Below the pieces are notes generated by a model, which ran no database searches, was not told the DNA's origin, and was given only the letters and a program-made list of their open reading frames with translations. From an uncultured bacterium (lineage in GTDB: Bacteria > Fidelibacterota > Marinisomatia > Marinisomatales > UBA1611), in assembly GCA_964525185.1 (NCBI GenBank), contig CAZGFQ010000004.1, forward strand, positions 26,890 to 90,889: DNA of 64,000 nucleotides, in the 5' to 3' direction. Within the stretch, counting starts at the first letter, position 1. Each line of letters starts with the position of its first letter. Position numbers and translations under genes: made by a program. Positions 25,389 to 58,773 of this stretch are shown here, piece by piece.

Positions 25389-26960
25389 ATGAAAGAAAAA
25401 ATTATTGTTTTTGATACAACATTACGGGATGGTGAACAGGCTCCTGGAGCTTCTTTAAATGTGCAAGAAAAAGTAGAAGTTGCAAAACAACTTATTCGAT
25501 TAAATGTTGATGTTATTGAAGCAGGATTCCCAGTCTCATCTCAAGCTCAATTTGATGCAGTTCAACGCATTGCAGATTTAAATGAATCACCTATTATTGC
25601 AGGTTTAGCTAGAACAGTTGATGGTGATATTAAAGCAGCCAACGATTCTTTGAAGAATTCTAAAAAGTTTAGAATACATACATTCGCAGGGACTTCAGAT
25701 ATTCACATTTTGGGCAAATTTGCGAGTGATCGATATGGAAAATCTTTAGATGATAAACGAAAAACAATTTTAAAAATGTCATGTGATGCGGTGGCTTATG
25801 CAAAAACATTTACGGATGATGTAGAATTTTCTGCTGAAGATGCTGGTCGAACAGATATCGGATATTTGATAGATATTATTGAAGCCGTAATAGCGTCGGG
25901 TGCTACAACAGTTAATATTCCAGATACCACGGGATATACTATGCCCCATGAATACGGGGAAAAGATTTCAATTCTTAAAGAAAAAGTATCAAATATTAAT
26001 GAAGCAATTATAAGTGTTCATTGTCACAATGATTTAGGCTTGGCGGTTGCCAATTCATTAACAGCCGTAAATCAGGGGGCACGTCAAATTGAGTGTACTG
26101 TAAATGGAATTGGAGAAAGAGCTGGGAATGCGTCTTTAGAAGAAATTGTTATGGCCATGAAAGTCAGAGAAGATGCATGGGATTTCAAGACAGATATTGT
26201 TACATCAGAAATATTCAATACAAGCCGAATGGTATCTGCTTTTACAGGAATGGTTGTTCAACCCAATAAAGCAATTGTTGGAGAAAATGCGTTCTCTCAC
26301 GAATCAGGAATACACCAAGATGGTGTTTTAAAAAATAAAAAAACATATGAAATCATGGACCCAGATTTGGTGGGGGTTCAAGAATCTAAAATTGTTTTAG
26401 GACGGCATTCGGGACGCCATGGATTAATCGCTAGGCTGAATGAAATTGGATATCATCCTGATGGAGAAGAATTAAAACAGATTTATGAAAAATTTCTTGA
26501 GTTAGCGGATAAGAAAAAAGAAGTGTTTGATGATGATCTTCGAGTATTAATGGGAGATGAAATATATGTTAAAGATTACCGCCATGAACTGGATTATCTC
26601 CATGTTAATATTGGAACCACAACAATTCCAACGGCTACTGTTAGGATTAAGACTGAGGAAAGAATAGTAGAAGAGTCCGCCACGGGAGATGGACCTGTAG
26701 ATGCATGTTTTAATGCCATTGATAGAGCTTTAAATGAAAAATATCATATAGAATCTTATAAAGTGCGATCTGTGACAATGGGAAGATCTGCTCAAGGTGA
26801 AGCTACAGTTCGCTTAAGAGATGGGTCCGATTCTTTTACTGGTCGAGGCGTTTCTACAGACATCGTTGAAGCAAGCGCAAAAGCATATTTACAAGCTATT
26901 AATGAACATATTATTCAAGTGGATGTTAACGAATTGCTTGATTCTGTTCTAACACCATAG
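25389..26960 (+). CDS. leuA: 2-isopropylmalate synthase
   Basis: [22 protein letters not shown], and a C-terminal LeuA regulatory domain. Start set at ATG 25389 (alternative GTG at 25368). Confidence 0.93.
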
Positions 26961-43045: not shown

Positions 43046-43324
43046 CTAACAAGCACCAGCAGATTGAATCACTAATCCTTTTCCACGATAATCGTTTACA
43101 TAATCAATCGTAAAGCCGCCTACGTGATTTTGATCTTGCTCGCTAATGATAACGTCTATTCCGTTAATCGAATATTTTTTATCTGTATTATTGGACTCAT
43201 CCAGAGCCATGCCTAAGCTGGGTCCGCCTCATCCAAAACCAGCCATATATACTCTCAATGATTTTCCATCATTTTGAGATAATATAGCATTTATTTCTTT
43301 TTTTGCAATATCTGTAATAGTCAT
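43046..43324 (-). CDS. HesB/IscA-like small protein with in-frame TGA at the conserved Cys position (candidate selenoprotein, Sec32)
   Basis: Hand translation of the minus strand: MTITDIAKKEINAILSQNDGKSLRVYMAGFG[TGA]GGPSLGMALDESNNTDKKYSINGIDVIISEQDQNHVGGFTIDYVNDYRGKGLVIQSAGAC, ending in a TAG stop. TGA at 43231-43229. Invisible to the ORF track because each half is under 60 aa. Confidence 0.65.
43193..43225 (-). other. SECIS-like stem-loop downstream of the HesB-like UGA
   Basis: Counting from the first nt after the UGA. Lower stem G4-C36..C7-G33, upper stem C8-G28, C9-G27, A10-U24, G11-C23, C12-G22, U13-G21 with a bulged CU. Apical loop UAGGCAU places GG 16-17 nt after the UGA. Folded by hand. 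Confidence 0.4.
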
Positions 43325-51407: not shown

Positions 51408-52934
51408 ATGCCTCAAATAGGAATATATATATTTCTATTATTGGCCTCGATTAGTCTAGGTCAACCGGGATTTAGTTTAGAAGATTTAAATCCTAATTCA
51501 CTCACATACGGACAAATGATGGGACCTTCTGATTTTGAAGGAGATGTTACCATTCTTTTTTTTGGACATGAAACGTGAGGTACTTGTCGAAACCGGTTCG
51601 GTTTTCTTAACAAAATACATACTGATCTACAATTATTAAATGTAACTGATGTTCATATACTTGGTATTGGGAAGGATGAGTATAACACATCATTAAATCA
51701 GATGATTGCTGGTGCACATTTGCCTTGGTTGGAAGATTCAAATGCCACTGGATACCCCGTCTGGTCTTCATGGAATGCACAACAGAGATCTATTTTTATA
51801 CTAAATCGTGATGGTACTCAAGATACAACATTTAATATGACACCTTATTCCGAAGATGATCCTGAAGATTATTTATATTTAATGCATTTAATATTAAGCT
51901 ACCGAAATAATGGCGGGAATCAAACGATTCGGATTCCGGAAGATTATCCTGAAATACAAACGGGAATCGATATGAGTCAAGATGGTGATTTAATTATAGT
52001 CGATTCGGGGACATATTTTGAGCAACTAAATTTAATGGGGAAACACATTACATTAGCTTCATTATCTTTTCATAATATGGCTAATGATTATTTAGATGAT
52101 ACTATAATAGATGGGCAAGGAATTGATAGAGTTATAACTATTGAAAATGGAGAAAATTCATCCACAAAGGTTATTGGGCTAACTATTACAAATGGGAATG
52201 CTGATATTGGTTCTGGAATTTTCATTGGGAATAGTTCTAATCCAGTTATTGAAAAAAACAAAATTTTAAATAATAATGGAGTCTGGTGTGGAGCTGTAGG
52301 TGGTGGTATAGCAATTATGGAACAGTCACATCCAAAAATCATTGGGAATATTATTGAAAATAATTCTGTAAATGGCCCTTGTGATTGTATATGCTATTTT
52401 GGAGGAGGAGTATATGTTGACTCTACATCATTCCCAATTGTTGGTGGTGAAGAGGGGCTAGGGAATTCATTTTTTTTGAATAGCAGTGATTACGGTTACC
52501 ATCTTTTTAGGCAACCACCCATGGATACCACTGATATTATACCGATTAATGCAAGATTTAATACATTTGACCAATGTCCACCAGAATATTTTGGCGATGT
52601 TTACCCGGAATTTGGATGGGATGTGTCAAATTGTTATCCAATATTATCCATTGATGATGAATTTGTAACAAATAGTTTTACTTTATTTTCTGCTTACCCT
52701 AATCCATTTAATGGACATGTCACTTTATCATTTTCGCTAGAAAAAGATGAAACCACCCAAATGAAAGTATATGATTTATCAGGCAAATTAGTAGATAAAA
52801 TTTTGAATGAAAAAATGAGAACAGGGGATTACACCATTACATGGGACGCTAATAATTATGCAAGCGGTGTATATATTGTTCAGTTAAATTTTGGTGATGC
52901 ACAAGTATCTCAAAAAATACTTCTCCTTAAATAA
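51408..52934 (+). CDS. Secreted thioredoxin-fold (TlpA/redoxin-like) protein with UxxC motif (in-frame TGA, candidate Sec57), fused to a right-handed beta-helix and a T9SS C-terminal sorting domain
   Basis: ATG 51408 is in phase with track ORF 51702..52934 (offset 294 nt). The only interruption is TGA 51576-51578: ..GDVTILFFGHET[TGA]GTCRNRFGFLNKIH..ILGIGKDEY..LPWLEDS..SIFILNRDG. PbH1-like repeats (NGNADIGSGIFIGNSSNPVIEKNKILNNN...). C-terminal YPNPFNGHVTLSF...VYIVQL tail. Confidence 0.7.
51589..51606 (+). other. SECIS-like hairpin 10 nt downstream of the UGA of the thioredoxin-fold gene
   Basis: GAAACC (51589-51594) pairs with GG(U)UUUC (51600-51606), leaving one bulged U. The apical loop GGUUC places GGU 17-19 nt after the UGA. 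Folded by hand. Confidence 0.5.
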
Positions 52935-53685
52935 GGTTTTCATTTGTATTGCTATTTTAAATGCAGGATCATCCTTGCAGGGAGAAACTTCATTCAAAGG
53001 TGAAACCATGATTAAAGAAATTGATTGGGCGGGAATATCGTTCAAAATGGTTCAAACTGGCGAATCAAATCACAAGTTAATTTGGTTACATGGTGATGAA
53101 AAAACTGCAAAGATGGCATTGGAAGATTATGTTCATCATAATCCCGGGATAGCTTATTTTATTCAATATTCGGAGCGAGAAGTTCCATTTTGGGATACTA
53201 AAGTAGATCCAAATCGTATTTTCTCAACAGTGGGTTCCAGAAAGGCTCTTCAAAAATTCAAAACAGACTGGAATAACACCCAACTCAATGAAGCTGTATC
53301 ATTAATTGAAAGAGAAAGGCGATCTTTTTTAGATGAAATATTTCCAACGAACGGTGGTGTCCTAATATCACTCCACAATAATTTTCGGGGATACGATGTT
53401 CATTCGGAGATAAAAAACAGTACATCTATTTCAATAAAAGAAGGACAAAACCCAAGAGATTTTATCATTTGCACAGAAGAAGAAGATTATCTGAAATTGG
53501 CTAAAGGACCTTATAATGTTGTACTGCAAGATAAAAAAGTTGGAAAAGATGATGGCTCATTATCTTGGGCATCTTTAGACCATGGAATCCGTTATATAAA
53601 TATTGAAGTACGGTTAGGGTGGTTATCAAAACAAAAAAAGATGTTAAACTATATTCACGAAACATTAATACATGAAAATAATTAA
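52897..53685 (+). CDS. Hypothetical exported protein, possibly a zinc carboxypeptidase/amidase-like (MpaA/M14-like) fold
   Basis: About 262 aa. Signal-like VFICIAILNAGSS. WLHGDEKTA and VDPNRIFS resemble the HxxE and DxNRNF segments of M14-type enzymes, but this is a weak call. The start is uncertain (52891/52894/52897). Confidence 0.4.
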   Translation: MHKYLKKYFSLNKVFICIAILNAGSSLQGETSFKGETMIKEIDWAGISFKMVQTGESNHKLIWLHGDEKTAKMALEDYVHHNPGIAYFIQYSEREVPFWDTKVDPNRIFSTVGSRKALQKFKTDWNNTQLNEAVSLIERERRSFLDEIFPTNGGVLISLHNNFRGYDVHSEIKNSTSISIKEGQNPRDFIICTEEEDYLKLAKGPYNVVLQDKKVGKDDGSLSWASLDHGIRYINIEVRLGWLSKQKKMLNYIHETLIHENN

Positions 53686-53938
53686 TTCATTAATACAAAA
53701 GATAATAAAACTCATGCCAATCATTTTATTAGTCATGATGGCAACTATCGATAGAAAAAATTCATTATATGTCGCTTTTTTTCTAATTATTTTATTTGGT
53801 TATTCAGCCATACTAATTGCAAGAGTTCTTGAAGCAAAAAAGAAATGGTATCAAGAAAATAGTGATTTAGCTGGATTAGGGGTGGATGAAACAATAGACA
53901 CAATGGGTGACATAACAAAAAAAATTGAAAACAATTAG
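53672..53938 (+). CDS. Small membrane protein (88 aa, two TM segments)
   Basis: Hydrophobic segments MPIILLVMMATI and LYVAFFLIILFGYSAILIA. Overlaps the upstream gene by 14 nt. Confidence 0.5.
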   Translation: MKIINSLIQKIIKLMPIILLVMMATIDRKNSLYVAFFLIILFGYSAILIARVLEAKKKWYQENSDLAGLGVDETIDTMGDITKKIENN

Positions 53939-53950
53939 ATGGAGTTATAA

Positions 53951-54328
53951 ATGAAAAAAGGAATTGATCAAAAAAGTTTTATCATAGGCATTTTGTCTGC
54001 AACATTATTTTTTGTGGTGATTGGTGCGGATGAAAAGCCAATCGAAACAAATGATAATCAATTGGTTGAAGGGAATTTGGGTGACATTGTTGTTAATTCA
54101 ATTACAGTATTAGATGATGGACATGGCGGATATATTTCAACCTACAATCAAGATGGGAAGCGGACGATCTATATTGGGACAGGTGAAAATAGAAATGGAT
54201 ATATTAGTACATTTAATAAAATGGAAGAGGCTACAACCTATCTTGGGACGAACAAAGAATTAGATGGTATTGTCGTTTTAAAAGATCGTTATGGTGATTT
54301 AGGGTGGAGTCAAACAGGGAAACAATAA
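53951..54328 (+). CDS. Membrane-anchored hypothetical protein with internal GxYISTxN repeats
   Basis: 125 aa. N-terminal TM (FIIGILSATLFFVVIG). Repeated GGYISTYNQDGK / NGYISTFNKMEE segments. Confidence 0.5.
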   Translation: MKKGIDQKSFIIGILSATLFFVVIGADEKPIETNDNQLVEGNLGDIVVNSITVLDDGHGGYISTYNQDGKRTIYIGTGENRNGYISTFNKMEEATTYLGTNKELDGIVVLKDRYGDLGWSQTGKQ

Positions 54329-55067: not shown

Positions 55068-57275
55068 ATGAAATCTATTTATTTTATTCTATTTCTATCT
55101 TTAGCATCATCTGCTTTAGTGGGGAATACTGTGATCAGGGGTGCTGTTTCAGACGAAATGACAGAACAGCCTATTGTCGGAGTTAATATAGAAGTTGTGG
55201 GTACCGATTTTGGCTCTTTTTCTGATGAAGGTGGCCAGTTTAGGGTACAGACAAATCTATTATTCCCAATTGAGCTGAAATTGTCTCACATTGGTTATGA
55301 AACAAAATTTATGACCATTCAGGATGATCAAACCATTAAGGTATTTCTCGTGCCATCTGTTATTACTTCTCAATCAGTAGAAGTGGTTGGGGAAAGAAAA
55401 AAATATGAAGCAGATGTTTCTTCCTCTATTGATATTGTTGACTTGGAAGATATAGAACTTCAAGGCGCACGTGACTTGGGCAGCTCTTTGCGTCGTGTGA
55501 GTAGCATTAAAATCGATTATTCCACTTCGGGAAAGCAAACGATTAGTATCCGAGGGAATAATGCAACGGATGTGGCTGTTTTCCTTGATGGAATAAAGAT
55601 GAATGATTCGAATACAGGTGTTGCAGATTTATCTTCACTTGATTTAAATGTGATTGAACAAATCCAAGTTATAAAAGGTGGGAATTCTACTTTGTATGGT
55701 GCAGGTGCTATTGGCGGTGTAGTAAATATGGAATCTAAACGCGCTGAAAAAAATGGAATCTATTTTAATCAAGGGATTGGCCAAACATTTAATGATGATG
55801 TTGACTTTTCTACCGGAGCGACTGGGCGATGGAAAGCATTTGGAATTGGTGGGAGATATTCTGGGAAGACCCGCGCTTATGGCGGAAGAACGATTACTAC
55901 ATCTATTTTTCAAAATGTTTTTTCAAATTTAGATTTGAATTCAGGAAATGTAAATGCGCGATATTACCAATTTAATAAAGGGTTGGAATTCCCATCTGGT
56001 GGAGTTGCAACTCAAGATGATATGACTTTATTTAGCGCACAATATGATGGACGAATATTCAAATGGGATGGATGGTCATTACAAGCTGGGCAAAGATTAT
56101 GGAATCTATCTCAAGATTTTTATACGAGTTTAGAAGAAAACCTTCATGATGAATCATTAAATGTGCAAGTATTGAAGCATGGTCGAATTGGAAAATTAGA
56201 TATGTCTCTTCAGTACGAATTAGAAGATCAGAAATTTCAAGGTATAAAAAATTATAAATCCTTGTTTGGGGATACCACAGTGATTCAAACTGGAGATATG
56301 AAGCGAAGAAGCCAGGCGGGATCATCAGTATTTCAATGGGAAGTATTAGGCGATCACCCCTATGTGGATATCATAGCGTTTGAGCTGGCAATGAGATTTA
56401 ACTATATTCAAACAATTCGTGAACAAACATTCTCATTCCCAGGAATTCCTGGAAATAGTGGAAATATATATTATGAAAAACCAGGTTCATTTTTAGCATC
56501 TACTCCATCTTCAAAGAGAATTGGTATTCGGATGGAAGGAAAAACACCGCGATTAGATTATGGCTTTTTTGTAAATCAAGGGAATAATACACGGTTACCA
56601 TCCTTGAGTGATTTCTTTCGTTTTTCGAATGCAAGGGAAGAAGATAAAGTAGATTCTACCTTAGTGAATGAAAATGTATCCACTACTGAAGGAAATCTTC
56701 AGTTTAATTTTAAACTTTTTGATAATTCCAAGATTCTCGATGGATTGGATTTAACATTTGGATACTTTAGAAACAACTACACGAATAAGATTGCTTACCG
56801 ATTATTAGAAGATTCTCCTCCGGTTCCATATAATACACTTACATCAGAAATAAGCGGACAAGAATTCACCATTAATTCATCCAATTTGAATGGGAAGTTA
56901 AATCTCTCGTTTGCAACAACCCTTTTACAAATTTCAGATGTACTAATATTTCCAAACAAGCCAGAACGAAGAAGTGTAACAACCATTGAATGGAATCAAG
57001 ATTGGTTTGTAGCCACATATGATATGACCTACGATGGGGAACAATTCTTTTTTATACCTGGCGTAGGTGGTGGCGTTATTAAACCCAAAGAAAATGCAAA
57101 TTTAAGTTTATCCTTAAGAAAAAAATACTTGGGTTTGAATTGGCGAGCTTCTTATACAATAAGGAATATTTTTTCGAAGGGAGAAATAGATTTAACATTA
57201 GAAGAAAGCTTAGAGCGTGGCTACAATTATTTTGATAAGTATAGAGAAATTTTTACCATCAAGGTAGAATGGTAA
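55068..57275 (+). CDS. TonB-dependent receptor with CarboxypepD_reg-like N-terminal domain
   Basis: 735 aa. Signal peptide, VIRGAVSDEMTEQPIVGVNIEVVGTDFGSFSDEGGQFRV, plug IQVIKGGNSTLYGAGAIGGVVNM, C-terminal aromatic residue (..KVEW). Confidence 0.88.
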   Translation: MKSIYFILFLSLASSALVGNTVIRGAVSDEMTEQPIVGVNIEVVGTDFGSFSDEGGQFRVQTNLLFPIELKLSHIGYETKFMTIQDDQTIKVFLVPSVITSQSVEVVGERKKYEADVSSSIDIVDLEDIELQGARDLGSSLRRVSSIKIDYSTSGKQTISIRGNNATDVAVFLDGIKMNDSNTGVADLSSLDLNVIEQIQVIKGGNSTLYGAGAIGGVVNMESKRAEKNGIYFNQGIGQTFNDDVDFSTGATGRWKAFGIGGRYSGKTRAYGGRTITTSIFQNVFSNLDLNSGNVNARYYQFNKGLEFPSGGVATQDDMTLFSAQYDGRIFKWDGWSLQAGQRLWNLSQDFYTSLEENLHDESLNVQVLKHGRIGKLDMSLQYELEDQKFQGIKNYKSLFGDTTVIQTGDMKRRSQAGSSVFQWEVLGDHPYVDIIAFELAMRFNYIQTIREQTFSFPGIPGNSGNIYYEKPGSFLASTPSSKRIGIRMEGKTPRLDYGFFVNQGNNTRLPSLSDFFRFSNAREEDKVDSTLVNENVSTTEGNLQFNFKLFDNSKILDGLDLTFGYFRNNYTNKIAYRLLEDSPPVPYNTLTSEISGQEFTINSSNLNGKLNLSFATTLLQISDVLIFPNKPERRSVTTIEWNQDWFVATYDMTYDGEQFFFIPGVGGGVIKPKENANLSLSLRKKYLGLNWRASYTIRNIFSKGEIDLTLEESLERGYNYFDKYREIFTIKVEW

Positions 57276-57279
57276 ACAG

Positions 57280-58773
57280 ATGAAAGCTGTTTTATGTCGC
57301 CTTTTTATTTTTGGACTAATAGCTGTTACAAGTTGTAAAGTGCCCACATTGCCTGAAGAAAAGAAGGAAGACCCTTTGTTTCAAGTTTTAATTGATTACG
57401 ATGGGCATACCATTTATCATCCCACGGAAGTCAAAATCACTTGGACAGAATTTGTTGTTAATGGGTTTAAGGAAATAATGGTAGAAAAAGCGAAAATTAT
57501 TAATAATGAAAAAAATTGGGTCCATTTAGCATCTGTTACTGATTCATTAGCTATTTCTTATATTGACACGATTGATGATGATGGGTCTTTTCAATATCGT
57601 GTCAGACTTGTAGATAAAAACAATCAATTTATTTCTGCTGAGTCGAATACGTTTGATGTGCCAAATGTTTCAGCGCTAGAAATGCCTTCTCATTACGGTT
57701 CACTGGCAATAGCTTATGAATCACCATTTTTAGATGAAGGGGATTCTATTAAAATATCACCTGGAACATATGCCGGTAATTTTAAATTATTGGAAAAGAA
57801 TGTTACTATCATTGGTGTTTACGGAGCAGAAACAACTATATTTACTGGAATTTCTGACACAATGCCTGTTATTGAAATGAGTATTGGAACTTTCTCAGGA
57901 ATTACCATTACTGGAGGGCATTCCTATAATGCGGGAGGGATTCGTGCCACAGGAAATGTTTTAATTAAAAATTGTATTATTACGGGGAATGCAACCATTG
58001 AAAATGAAGATGCGAATATTCAAATATATCCATTTGCATATGGTGGTGGTGTTTATTTAACCGATAATGCAATCATGGAAAATTGTATAATATCTGAAAA
58101 TTGGTCATGGTTTGGTGCGGGTGGTGTTTTGATGGATGGAAATACCATTATCAGAGATTGTGTTGTAGACCAAAATAGAACAAAAGGATTAGGTGGCGGA
58201 ATTTTAGTTTATTCAGGTGATTGCAAGATTGAACGCGTTGATATAAAAAGGAATAGATGCTTAGGACAATCTATGGGAGGCCCAGCAGATCCCAGTTTTG
58301 GTGGTGGACTGGGAGTAAGATCAGGTACGGTTACAGTTAATAATACTTTATTATGGAAAAATAATGCCATGAGTGGCGGTGGCGGTTTCTATAATTTTCT
58401 TGGTGGAAATATATCTTTAACAAATTGTGTAATTGTTGAAAATACATCTGGTCTTGTAAATTATAAAGAAGGATCCGGTGTTAATTGGGGAGACCTTAAT
58501 GTGCTCAATACGATTATATGGGATAACACTGGCGGAAATCCACGGCGGTTATGGCAAAATGCAACCTATTGTAATATTGATGAAATTTTTATTGTTAATA
58601 CAAGTTCAGGCAATATTCAAGATGACCCTGAGTTTTTACTTGAAACTGCCGATGATTTTAGAATAAATAATTCCTCGCCGTGTGTAGATGCAGGTCACCC
58701 AGACAACCAATATAATGATACCAACGGGACTAGAAATGATATGGGTATTTTTGGAGGCCCCGGAAGTTCTTAA
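57280..58773 (+). CDS. Lipoprotein with right-handed parallel beta-helix repeats
   Basis: 497 aa. Lipobox AVTSC and an N-terminal Ig/Fn3-like region. PbH1-type repeats (GGIRATGNVLIKNCIITGN..., GGGVYLTDNAIMENCIISEN...). C-terminal DDPEF...SPCVDAG...GIFGG motif. Confidence 0.75.
   Translation: MKAVLCRLFIFGLIAVTSCKVPTLPEEKKEDPLFQVLIDYDGHTIYHPTEVKITWTEFVVNGFKEIMVEKAKIINNEKNWVHLASVTDSLAISYIDTIDDDGSFQYRVRLVDKNNQFISAESNTFDVPNVSALEMPSHYGSLAIAYESPFLDEGDSIKISPGTYAGNFKLLEKNVTIIGVYGAETTIFTGISDTMPVIEMSIGTFSGITITGGHSYNAGGIRATGNVLIKNCIITGNATIENEDANIQIYPFAYGGGVYLTDNAIMENCIISENWSWFGAGGVLMDGNTIIRDCVVDQNRTKGLGGGILVYSGDCKIERVDIKRNRCLGQSMGGPADPSFGGGLGVRSGTVTVNNTLLWKNNAMSGGGGFYNFLGGNISLTNCVIVENTSGLVNYKEGSGVNWGDLNVLNTIIWDNTGGNPRRLWQNATYCNIDEIFIVNTSSGNIQDDPEFLLETADDFRINNSSPCVDAGHPDNQYNDTNGTRNDMGIFGGPGSS

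Follow-up and report, generated by a model that had tools for sequence, protein, structure and literature searches.

The 64,000-nt stretch of DNA analysed here (hereafter the window; positions 26,890 to 90,889 of contig CAZGFQ010000004.1, assembly GCA_964525185.1, from an uncultured bacterium of the Fidelibacterota) carries on its forward strand, at 51408..52934, a reading frame of 508 codons plus a TAA stop codon that contains one in-frame TGA, at codon 57. An initial annotation, made without database searches, had proposed that this frame encodes a hidden selenoprotein, with selenocysteine (Sec) in a thioredoxin-like domain that is fused to a β-helix and a sorting tail of the type IX secretion system (T9SS). 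Our results show that 51408-52934 is a real but mis-called Sec gene of a thioredoxin-like enzyme. We are, moreover, largely convinced that the region forms a single gene whose product is a 508-aa selenoprotein precursor, produced by Sec insertion and then exported as a T9SS-tailed redox protein.

The frame opens with ATG 51408, the first start codon past an in-frame TAG, with the sequence AGGAAG just 5' of it, and TAA 52932-34 closes it as a frame of 509 codons whose sole interruption is TGA 51576-51578. The open reading frame (ORF) 51702..52934 lies in the same phase at an offset of 294 nt, precisely as the initial annotation had described, and the read-through peptide quoted there was recovered unchanged, with the stop codon spanned by ...DVTILFFGHET-UGA-GTCRNRFGFLNKI... 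and an active-site context of FFGHET-UGA-GTCRNRFGF. In the mechanical ORF list, the frame is divided into a 56-aa ORF and the 410-aa ORF 51702..52934. The nearest public gene calls, which stem from orthologues of 42-99% identity, are likewise N-terminally truncated ORFs of about 410-442 aa that start 3' of the UGA; in the orthologue nearest to the window, the public start is the equivalent of ATG 51702. Orthologues of the full 508 aa are found in two Candidatus Neomarinimicrobiota metagenome-assembled genomes (MAGs; loci L004 and L005) and on two metagenome contigs (L015 and L017). One 73%-identical orthologue (L001, from MAG GCA_035092285.1) has an extra in-frame TGA, a change from GGA to TGA at 1326-1328 of its locus, after the motif CDCICYF. 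A role of this codon as a second Sec codon was ruled out, since it replaces a near-invariant Gly and is present in no other orthologue; for the same reason, it probably arose through misassembly or inactivates the gene.

Residues 20-164 of the read-through product (51465..51899, plus strand) constitute a thioredoxin-fold redox domain with the active site T-U-G-T-C-R. With the stop codon read as Cys, they match positions 2-145 of the 146-position NCBIfam model NF053656 (redoxin_TUGYCR, 'TUGYCR motif thioredoxin fold (seleno)protein') with a score of 147.2 bits (E 3e-43), well above the curated cut-off of 100, and the motif H-E-T-U-G-T-C-R contains the T-[U/C]-G-x-C-R signature required of the TUGYCR family. 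More general families are approached less closely: the threshold of AhpC-TSA (26 bits) was missed both by the full protein (18.9 bits) and by the isolated domain (21.6 bits), and the Pfam family Thioredoxin_8 also remained below threshold. For Pfam SelP_N, the window protein had no match at E <= 1, and only the Cys-form relative P0046 passed the threshold (26.8 vs 23.2 bits). With a single Cys-form member above the Pfam threshold, homology to the N-terminal domain of selenoprotein P was reduced to a weak lead.

To collect relatives, we combined an exhaustive HMMER search with the piece following the UGA, which found 204 sequences, with scans of genome and metagenome contigs, which gave 91 further loci; the latter were queried with a five-sequence alignment (A2), and the locus sample is biased to members containing FSLED[LI]NP. 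Of 95 sequences (the window and 94 fetched loci), 93 have TGA at the Sec column (residue 57, 51576..51578, plus strand), one has TGC and another TGT; this column would hold the nucleophile, at the N-terminal end of a UxxC motif. The initial annotation had asked whether homologues carry Cys or TGA in this column, and no non-Cys alternative was found among them. Judged by their record titles, the fetched loci span at least five phylum-level groups, with TGA-bearing representatives labelled Neomarinimicrobiota, Krumholzibacteriota, Deltaproteobacteria, 'proteobacterium' and Verrucomicrobiales, and the TGC copy lying in a Phycisphaeraceae MAG. Amino-acid conservation runs unbroken through the TGA in all 95 sequences. 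In total, seven Cys-form genes are available (L006, L074 and L095-L099).

In the public record, this column is largely obscured. Nearly all of the best HMMER relatives are ORFs that open just 3' of the Sec column, and the full-length ones show either Cys or 'W' at this position, the 'W' corresponding to a TGA in the DNA that was translated with another table. Proteins of this kind include P0037, P0043, P0044, P0054, P0057, P0062 and P0064, as well as two proteins of a HesB-like group described below (P0245 and P0246). Because of these W translations and N-terminally truncated ORFs, the family is hidden from word-based searches, one of which returned only two matches. Within the window, 47 open frames reach 180 codons or more, and seven of them end in TGA; the genetic code is thus not reassigned, in agreement with the initial annotation, which had treated TGA as an otherwise ordinary stop codon. 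Judged by these comparisons, the gene is a true selenoprotein gene.

Further evidence comes from the sequence 3' of the codon, where a 10-nt spacer separates the UGA from a hairpin at 51589..51605 (plus strand) that resembles a selenocysteine insertion sequence (SECIS). Its stem is formed by GAAACC (51589-51594) and GGUUUU (51600-51605), and its loop, GGUUC (51595-51599), begins with a G that lies 17 nt past the UGA. In an alternative register with one bulged U, G51589 pairs with C51606. This bulged form had been put forward in the initial annotation; the hairpin itself and its distance from the UGA hold up, but covariation across the family supports a plain 6-bp stem, and the bulged register is no more than an equally likely option in the window sequence. 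We analysed covariation in 60 unique sequences comprising the UGA and its downstream region, aligned without gaps, by comparing columns 14-19 with columns 25-30, counted from the U of the UGA. Standard pairs occupy 88.9% of the cells, as opposed to 69.9% in shuffles, none of 500 of which reached as high a value, and changes on both sides of the stem were seen in 58 cells vs 16.5 expected from the shuffles. The covariation score is 0.55 vs 0.19 in shuffles, compensatory pair types occur at five of the six stem positions, and registers slid against the true one are only 27-59% paired. RNAalifold independently predicted the same helix. The loop is similarly uniform, reading GGUUC in 49 sequences, AGUUU in six, GGUUU in four and AGUAU in one.

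Because the hairpin overlaps the conserved R-F-G codons, we also resampled synonymous codons to obtain a null expectation that retains the protein sequence. Genes with UGA keep 5.37 of the 6 pairs, compared with 3.31 +/- 0.13 under this null (z about 16), whereas the seven Cys-form genes have a mean of 3.57 pairs and are thus at null level. The stem is therefore under selection only where a UGA needs recoding. Among the Cys forms, L098 (TGC; 730-777) has a perfect 6/6 hairpin, and the other six have two to four pairs; L098 may represent a recent conversion from Sec to Cys. Bacterial SECIS elements are short hairpins in the coding region that start about 10-11 nt past the UGA, as in the Escherichia coli fdhF type, and carry an apical loop that is G-rich at its start. 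The geometry of the hairpin described here, with its 10-nt spacer and G-first apical loop, agrees with that of such an element, consistent with a role in Sec insertion. It shares with the fdhF type the close position 3' of the UGA and the G at the start of the loop, but differs from it in that the family consensus is a 6-bp stem with a 5-nt loop, (G/A)GUU(C/U), the bulged U is not obligatory, the loop additionally encodes the conserved R-F-G, and no Rfam model matches it.

The remainder of the protein contains putative export signals. Positions 51408..51461 (plus strand) encode a predicted signal peptide for the general secretory pathway and signal peptidase I, MPQIGIYIFLLLASISLG, which has a hydrophobic core and, at -3 to -1 of a predicted cleavage site that precedes Q19, the residues S-L-G; the leader was judged by eye, and leaders are conserved in the orthologues. 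Among 78 unique N-termini of the family, 33 have a Gln no more than four residues before the domain, following a hydrophobic leader, a further 17 show a lipobox Cys, long extensions occur in 22 and six fit none of these patterns, suggesting that most family members are exported forms. The Gln preceding the domain (Q19, 51462-51464, in the window protein) recurs in relatives (L004-L094), mostly on Marinimicrobia-like contigs, as QPGF after G or as QNDF after SA or FG, and it resembles the Bacteroidetes 'Q-rule' for pyroglutamate N-termini.

The redox domain is followed by a region predicted to form a right-handed parallel β-helix (51924..52478, plus strand; about aa 173-357), as delimited by a Pfam Beta_helix match and a segment of the AlphaFold2 (AF2) model. 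The Pfam match covers aa 245-341 and lies above threshold (E 7.9e-9), and in the model of the window protein this region is strand-rich, with values of 80-93 in the predicted local distance difference test (pLDDT). Foldseek retrieved no confident specific match for the β-helix of this model. A relationship to NosD was also considered, but its scores of 16-20 bits, against thresholds of 23.6 and 300, were taken as generic β-helix similarity. Inside the β-helix lies a Cys cluster, P-C-D-C-I-C-Y-F-G-G-G (52380-52412, plus strand, aa 325-335; Cys residues C325, C327 and C329 at 52380-52394). The motif is invariant in 20 orthologues with identities down to 40%, including C268, D269, C270 and C272 in numbering that starts after the TGA, and further conserved Cys residues are found at post-UGA positions 237, 333 and 352. 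The cluster could bind a metal, act as a redox relay or form a disulfide ladder. The protein ends with a T9SS type-A C-terminal sorting domain (CTD; 52695..52934, plus strand, aa 430-505 together with the final residues and the stop codon), which is recognised by both Por_Secre_tail (PF18962; E 5.5e-14, 52.7 bits vs a cut-off of 27) and TIGR04183 (E 2.8e-12, 46.4 bits vs 23). In the AF2 model, it forms a β-sandwich (pLDDT about 80), for which Foldseek retrieved the CTDs of T9SS cargo proteins (8glk_D, with a target-normalised template modelling score of 0.61, 8gl6_D and 8qb1_A), although with weak E-values. The β-helix and the T9SS tail noted in the initial annotation are both supported by family matches above threshold. 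NCBI applies the name 'T9SS type A sorting domain-containing' to other Marinimicrobia proteins.

A census of 63 unique complete UGA-containing ORFs places this architecture in context. About half of them are standalone proteins of 170-230 aa with lipoprotein signals, 12 have the window-like length of 508-525 aa, five have 394 aa and six about 271 aa; in several, the domain is located C-terminally, behind dockerin-containing extensions. A Pfam analysis of 30 pieces, 24 of them C-terminal extensions, yielded matches to Por_Secre_tail (21), Beta_helix (8), LTD (4) and Dockerin (4). Por_Secre_tail is also present in P0006, P0011, P0020, P0022 and P0023, and further truncated relatives combine the redox domain with leucine-rich repeat (LRR) or β-helix modules and a T9SS tail. 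Roughly one in three of the complete members in this sample has a secretion tail, and on this sequence evidence the T9SS-tailed architecture is recurrent in the TUGYCR family.

With regard to the fold of the redox domain, the best match of a profile of 19 family members among solved structures was Bacillus subtilis ResA (2h1b; E 2e-4), whose CxxC is aligned with the U/CxxC motif of the family. As a proxy for the fold, we used the AF2 model of the standalone member P0054, which contains the motif T-U-G-T-C-R, is 38% identical to the window domain (alignment A1) and was modelled with a pLDDT of 87. The model shows the order strand, active site at the N-terminus of a helix, strand, helix, strands, helix, and in Foldseek searches it gave template modelling scores of 0.78-0.80 to ResA, DsbE and other extracytoplasmic thioredoxin-like proteins; GPx4, GPx5 and Bcp were also retrieved with similar E-values. 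P0054 is thus confidently predicted to adopt a ResA/TlpA-like thioredoxin fold, in line with the initial annotation, which had proposed a fold of the TlpA/ResA type whose UxxC motif begins with Sec.

Taken together, these features suggest a path from the gene to its product. The hairpin would act as a bacterial SECIS: while the ribosome pauses at the UGA, it would recruit SelB-GTP-Sec-tRNA(Sec), allowing Sec to be inserted as the attacking residue of the U-G-T-C redox motif. The N-terminal signal peptide would direct the precursor through the general secretory translocon to the periplasm, with cleavage before Q19, and the type-A C-terminal domain would hand it over to the T9SS for release or anchoring at the outer surface. 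The mature protein would then consist of an N-terminal ResA/TlpA-like thioredoxin-fold domain, followed by a Cys-rich parallel β-helix that may serve as a substrate-binding, scaffold or relay module. We suggest with moderate confidence that the protein acts as an extracytoplasmic selenol/thiol-disulfide oxidoreductase on extracellular or envelope substrates. It is tempting to speculate, at slightly less than even confidence, that it belongs to a first documented class of T9SS-exported selenoproteins, whose Sec active site operates on the outer face of Marinimicrobia/SAR406, which are abundant in the ocean, and is served by the Cys cluster as a relay or as a metal/chalcogen site.

Several observations weigh against this interpretation. 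It is fold similarity alone that points to a catalytic role, with an E-value of 2e-4 for ResA and sub-threshold matches to AhpC-TSA and Thioredoxin_8, and an electron donor for a surface-exposed reductase is not evident. For the window protein, AF2 gave a mediocre model (pLDDT 67), as the part preceding the UGA was left out and modelling was confined to post-UGA residues. The signal peptide proposed in the initial annotation has a hydrophobic leader and a site with S-L-G before Q, but it was identified by inspection alone and its n-region contains no basic residue. Folding of 51570-51640, which the initial annotation had suggested as a check, does yield the hairpin in the window sequence, but the z-scores (+0.35 for this segment and -0.25 for 51576-51620) are not better than those of shuffles. 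Since these values are not significant, the support for the hairpin comes from the comparison between sequences and not from thermodynamics. Moreover, no SECIS family of Rfam was detected in a gathering scan of the window or a permissive scan of 51540-51680, which gave chance matches only. No T9SS component was found among the about 20 window ORFs scanned against family libraries, a survey that left out about 15-35 kb and other ORFs and was not aimed at T9SS machinery. Finally, SelA/SelB/SelD motif searches and ARAGORN revealed no selA, selB, selC (tRNA-Sec) or selD in the fetched loci or in the window, a negative of little weight for a genome represented by 64 kb, and the only literature hint of Sec machinery in SAR406 is the 'orphan' SelD listed for single-cell genomes of this group (PMC5029168).

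One alternative is that TGA 51576 is a true stop codon that separates a 56-aa peptide from an independent 410-aa protein starting at ATG 51702. Gene callers give exactly this split, and TGA does serve as a normal stop elsewhere in the window; however, termination at this position would sever one thioredoxin fold right at the active site and leave the 410-aa ORF with a secretion tail but no signal peptide. Given, in addition, the continuous conservation over the TGA in all 95 sequences, the Cys codons in both non-TGA genes and the covarying hairpin that is specific to UGA genes, we regard this scenario as extremely improbable. The chance that the TGA reflects a sequencing or assembly error, or that the gene is a pseudogene, is smaller still and practically negligible: although the window is probably metagenome-assembled and the orthologue L001 contains an additional, probably erroneous or inactivating TGA, 92 loci, independent of one another and derived from many samples and assemblers, carry the identical TGA, and the remaining frame is intact and conserved. 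The UGA could also be read without selenium, either because the code is reassigned to Trp or Gly (codes 4/25) or through near-cognate insertion of Cys or Trp, with the hairpin merely stimulating the process. The many public translations with W at this column, the lack of detectable Sec machinery in the window and the report of nothing but an 'orphan' SelD in SAR406 single-cell genomes would fit this explanation. Yet, the W residues are translation-table artefacts, none of the homologues contains a genuine TGG or GGN codon in place of the TGA, with TGC and TGT as the sole alternatives, and TGA ends seven of the 47 long frames of the window. Since the position also corresponds to the catalytic Cys of a CxxC motif, a classic Sec/Cys pair, and the hairpin geometry fits that generally known for bacterial SECIS elements, selenium-free read-through is very unlikely.

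A more serious competitor accepts the insertion of Sec but assigns the protein a different chemistry, such as that of a peroxidase similar to peroxiredoxins (Prx) or glutathione peroxidases (GPx), or that of a surface binder of metals, metalloids or selenium/sulfur species. Sub-threshold matches to AhpC-TSA in 10 of 19 family members and to SCO1/SenC in five of the 19, together with the SelP_N match of one member, point in this direction, as do the similar Foldseek E-values of GPx4, GPx5 and Bcp, the lack of an obvious extracellular reductant and a β-helix with weak NosD-like matches and an invariant Cys cluster. However, ResA is the best match at the level of sequence profiles, proteins of the ResA/TlpA/DsbE type are among the best structural matches and have the highest target-normalised scores, the UxxC spacing aligns to the CxxC of ResA, and the matches to Prx, GPx and SCO proteins all fall below curated thresholds. 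We therefore consider such a chemistry rather unlikely and favour the oxidoreductase activity proposed above.

The redox domain itself belongs to a family that is already known and for which NCBIfam provides a curated model that is flagged as a selenoprotein. In their 2008 analysis of the Global Ocean Sampling (GOS) selenoproteome, Zhang and Gladyshev (PMC2398784) described 'Prx-like 2', a marine-enriched group with a UxxC motif and weak similarity to pfam04592, comprising 99 Sec- and 100 Cys-containing sequences, with no strong homologue in the genomes then sequenced and with fusions to 'distant Secretin_N' and 'Unknown_2' domains. The 'Prx-like 2' set in the supplement contains the strings FSLEDLNP/FSLEDINP and UGTCRARFG or UGACRSRFG (found by string matching and not by formal alignment). 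It also includes one LRR-fused and one P0011-like sequence; in one case, FSLEDLNP...FFHEYUGTCRARFGLLNDI runs into LRR-like repeats. By these sequence criteria, the window domain can be assigned to the 'Prx-like 2'/NF053656 TUGYCR family, with which it shares the pattern FSLEDLNP...[T/Y/G]-U-G-x-C-R-x-R-F-G, the Sec/Cys column, the marine distribution, the weak similarity to AhpC/TSA and the N-terminal domain of selenoprotein P, and the coexistence of standalone and fused forms. Whereas the 2008 data were short reads, the full architecture is resolved here and placed in Marinimicrobia genomes. Exported, periplasmic or outer-membrane selenoproteins of other kinds have also been listed in reviews and NCBIfam, including TonB-dependent receptors, an MtrB/PioB barrel and secreted proteases. 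Our literature search found no paper that links a selenoprotein with the T9SS, nor one that names the TUGYCR model. The suggestion of the initial annotation that the architecture had not been described can thus be upheld for the fusion to a T9SS tail and a β-helix, which appears to be absent from the searchable literature, but not for the redox family or for exported selenoproteins as such. New here are the resolved architecture with its T9SS tail and β-helix fusion, its placement in Marinimicrobia and the proof of the SECIS by sequence comparison.

Comparisons with other known systems reveal both common traits and differences. With ResA, TlpA and DsbE (CcmG), the window protein shares the thioredoxin fold, an active-site dyad at the N-terminus of helix 1 and, as predicted, the extracytoplasmic location. 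It differs from ResA by the replacement of the attacking Cys with Sec and shows only 17-19% identity to it in structural alignments. Moreover, it lacks the transmembrane anchor of these proteins: the standalone forms of the family are lipoproteins, and the window form is a predicted T9SS cargo. We note this likeness and make no claim of membership in these families. Like T9SS type-A cargo proteins such as RgpB of Porphyromonas gingivalis and those of Flavobacterium johnsoniae, the window protein combines a predicted N-terminal signal peptide with PF18962/TIGR04183 and a modelled Ig-like sandwich, but it is a selenoprotein of Marinimicrobia instead of Bacteroidota. The predicted cell-surface location of a thioredoxin-fold redox protein has a parallel in Etrx1 and Etrx2 of Streptococcus pneumoniae (PDB 2yp6), a structural match to the P0054 model, although the Etrx proteins are Gram-positive, Cys-based and lipid-anchored. 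These proteins are recharged through CcdA.

Since the closest public gene calls start past the UGA and some others show a spurious Trp, inferences on the domain content, localisation and selenium use of these abundant marine bacteria are systematically wrong. The full-length architectures suggest that all members of this selenoprotein family, which has been known since 2008, are extracytoplasmic, either as lipoproteins or as T9SS cargo, and raise the question of how a selenol/thiol active site is recycled outside of the cell and what it targets. In addition, the conserved 17-nt hairpin, with its natural compensatory variants and the decayed Cys-form versions as controls, represents a compact and well-supported example of a SECIS from phyla without experimental data. 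If T9SS-exported Sec enzymes indeed exist, they would connect the availability of selenium in oxygen-minimum waters with redox or sulfur/metal chemistry outside of the cell.

The window gene belongs, by sequence similarity and gene order, to a Candidatus Neomarinimicrobiota (Marinimicrobia/SAR406) bacterium. In the Sec-protein domain, it shares 89% identity with its counterpart in MAG SI039_bin89 (locus L004), in which nine flanking ORFs are found in the same order as in the window, at 67-92% identity. A scan for in-frame TGAs between long open stretches revealed a second candidate selenoprotein gene, located on the minus strand at 43046-43324 (ATG 43324 to TAG 43046) in an apparently empty gap. 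It encodes a HesB-like protein of 92 aa (MTITD...MAGFG-U-GGPSLGMALDE...SAGAC; IscA/HesB-like) with the TGA at 43231-43229. Its two best NCBIfam matches, NF038090 and TIGR01911, are selenoprotein-linked HesB subfamilies, both of them below the cut-off. Orthologues from three distinct groups (L100-L106) retain the TGA; in public calls, the gene is either split into 31-aa and 54-aa parts or translated with a 'W'. Orthologues are widespread on Saanich Inlet contigs, where they are annotated as a 54-aa 'hypothetical protein [Candidatus Marinimicrobia bacterium]'; the GOS supplements, whose text was incomplete, gave no match. The conserved UGA of this gene lends indirect support to the presence of a Sec trait in the organism from which the window derives.

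The surroundings of the Sec gene are conserved as well, with the block from o50107 to o54452 being syntenic across the whole β-helix and CTD subfamily (47-59% identity in the Sec-protein domain). No redox partner gene, cytochrome c maturation gene or CcdA/DsbD gene was detected among the immediate flanking ORFs scanned against family libraries. Directly 3' of the Sec gene lies an ORF of 228 aa (52999-53685, plus strand) with an HGDE motif and no Pfam or NCBIfam family. It is at least as conserved as the Sec-protein domain (50-63% vs 47-59% identity), with an identity range of 50-82% over the subfamily loci, and its adjacency may reflect either a functional link or just lineage synteny. Two small ORFs (53672-53938 and 53951-54328, both on the plus strand) also adjoin the Sec gene throughout the β-helix subfamily. 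Further downstream, a TonB-dependent receptor gene (55068-57275, plus strand) is followed, 5 nt on, by a gene for a 497-aa predicted lipoprotein (57280-58773, plus strand) that has β-helix-like G-G-G/N repeats and no Pfam or NCBIfam match; this receptor-lipoprotein pair is conserved in L004 and L005.

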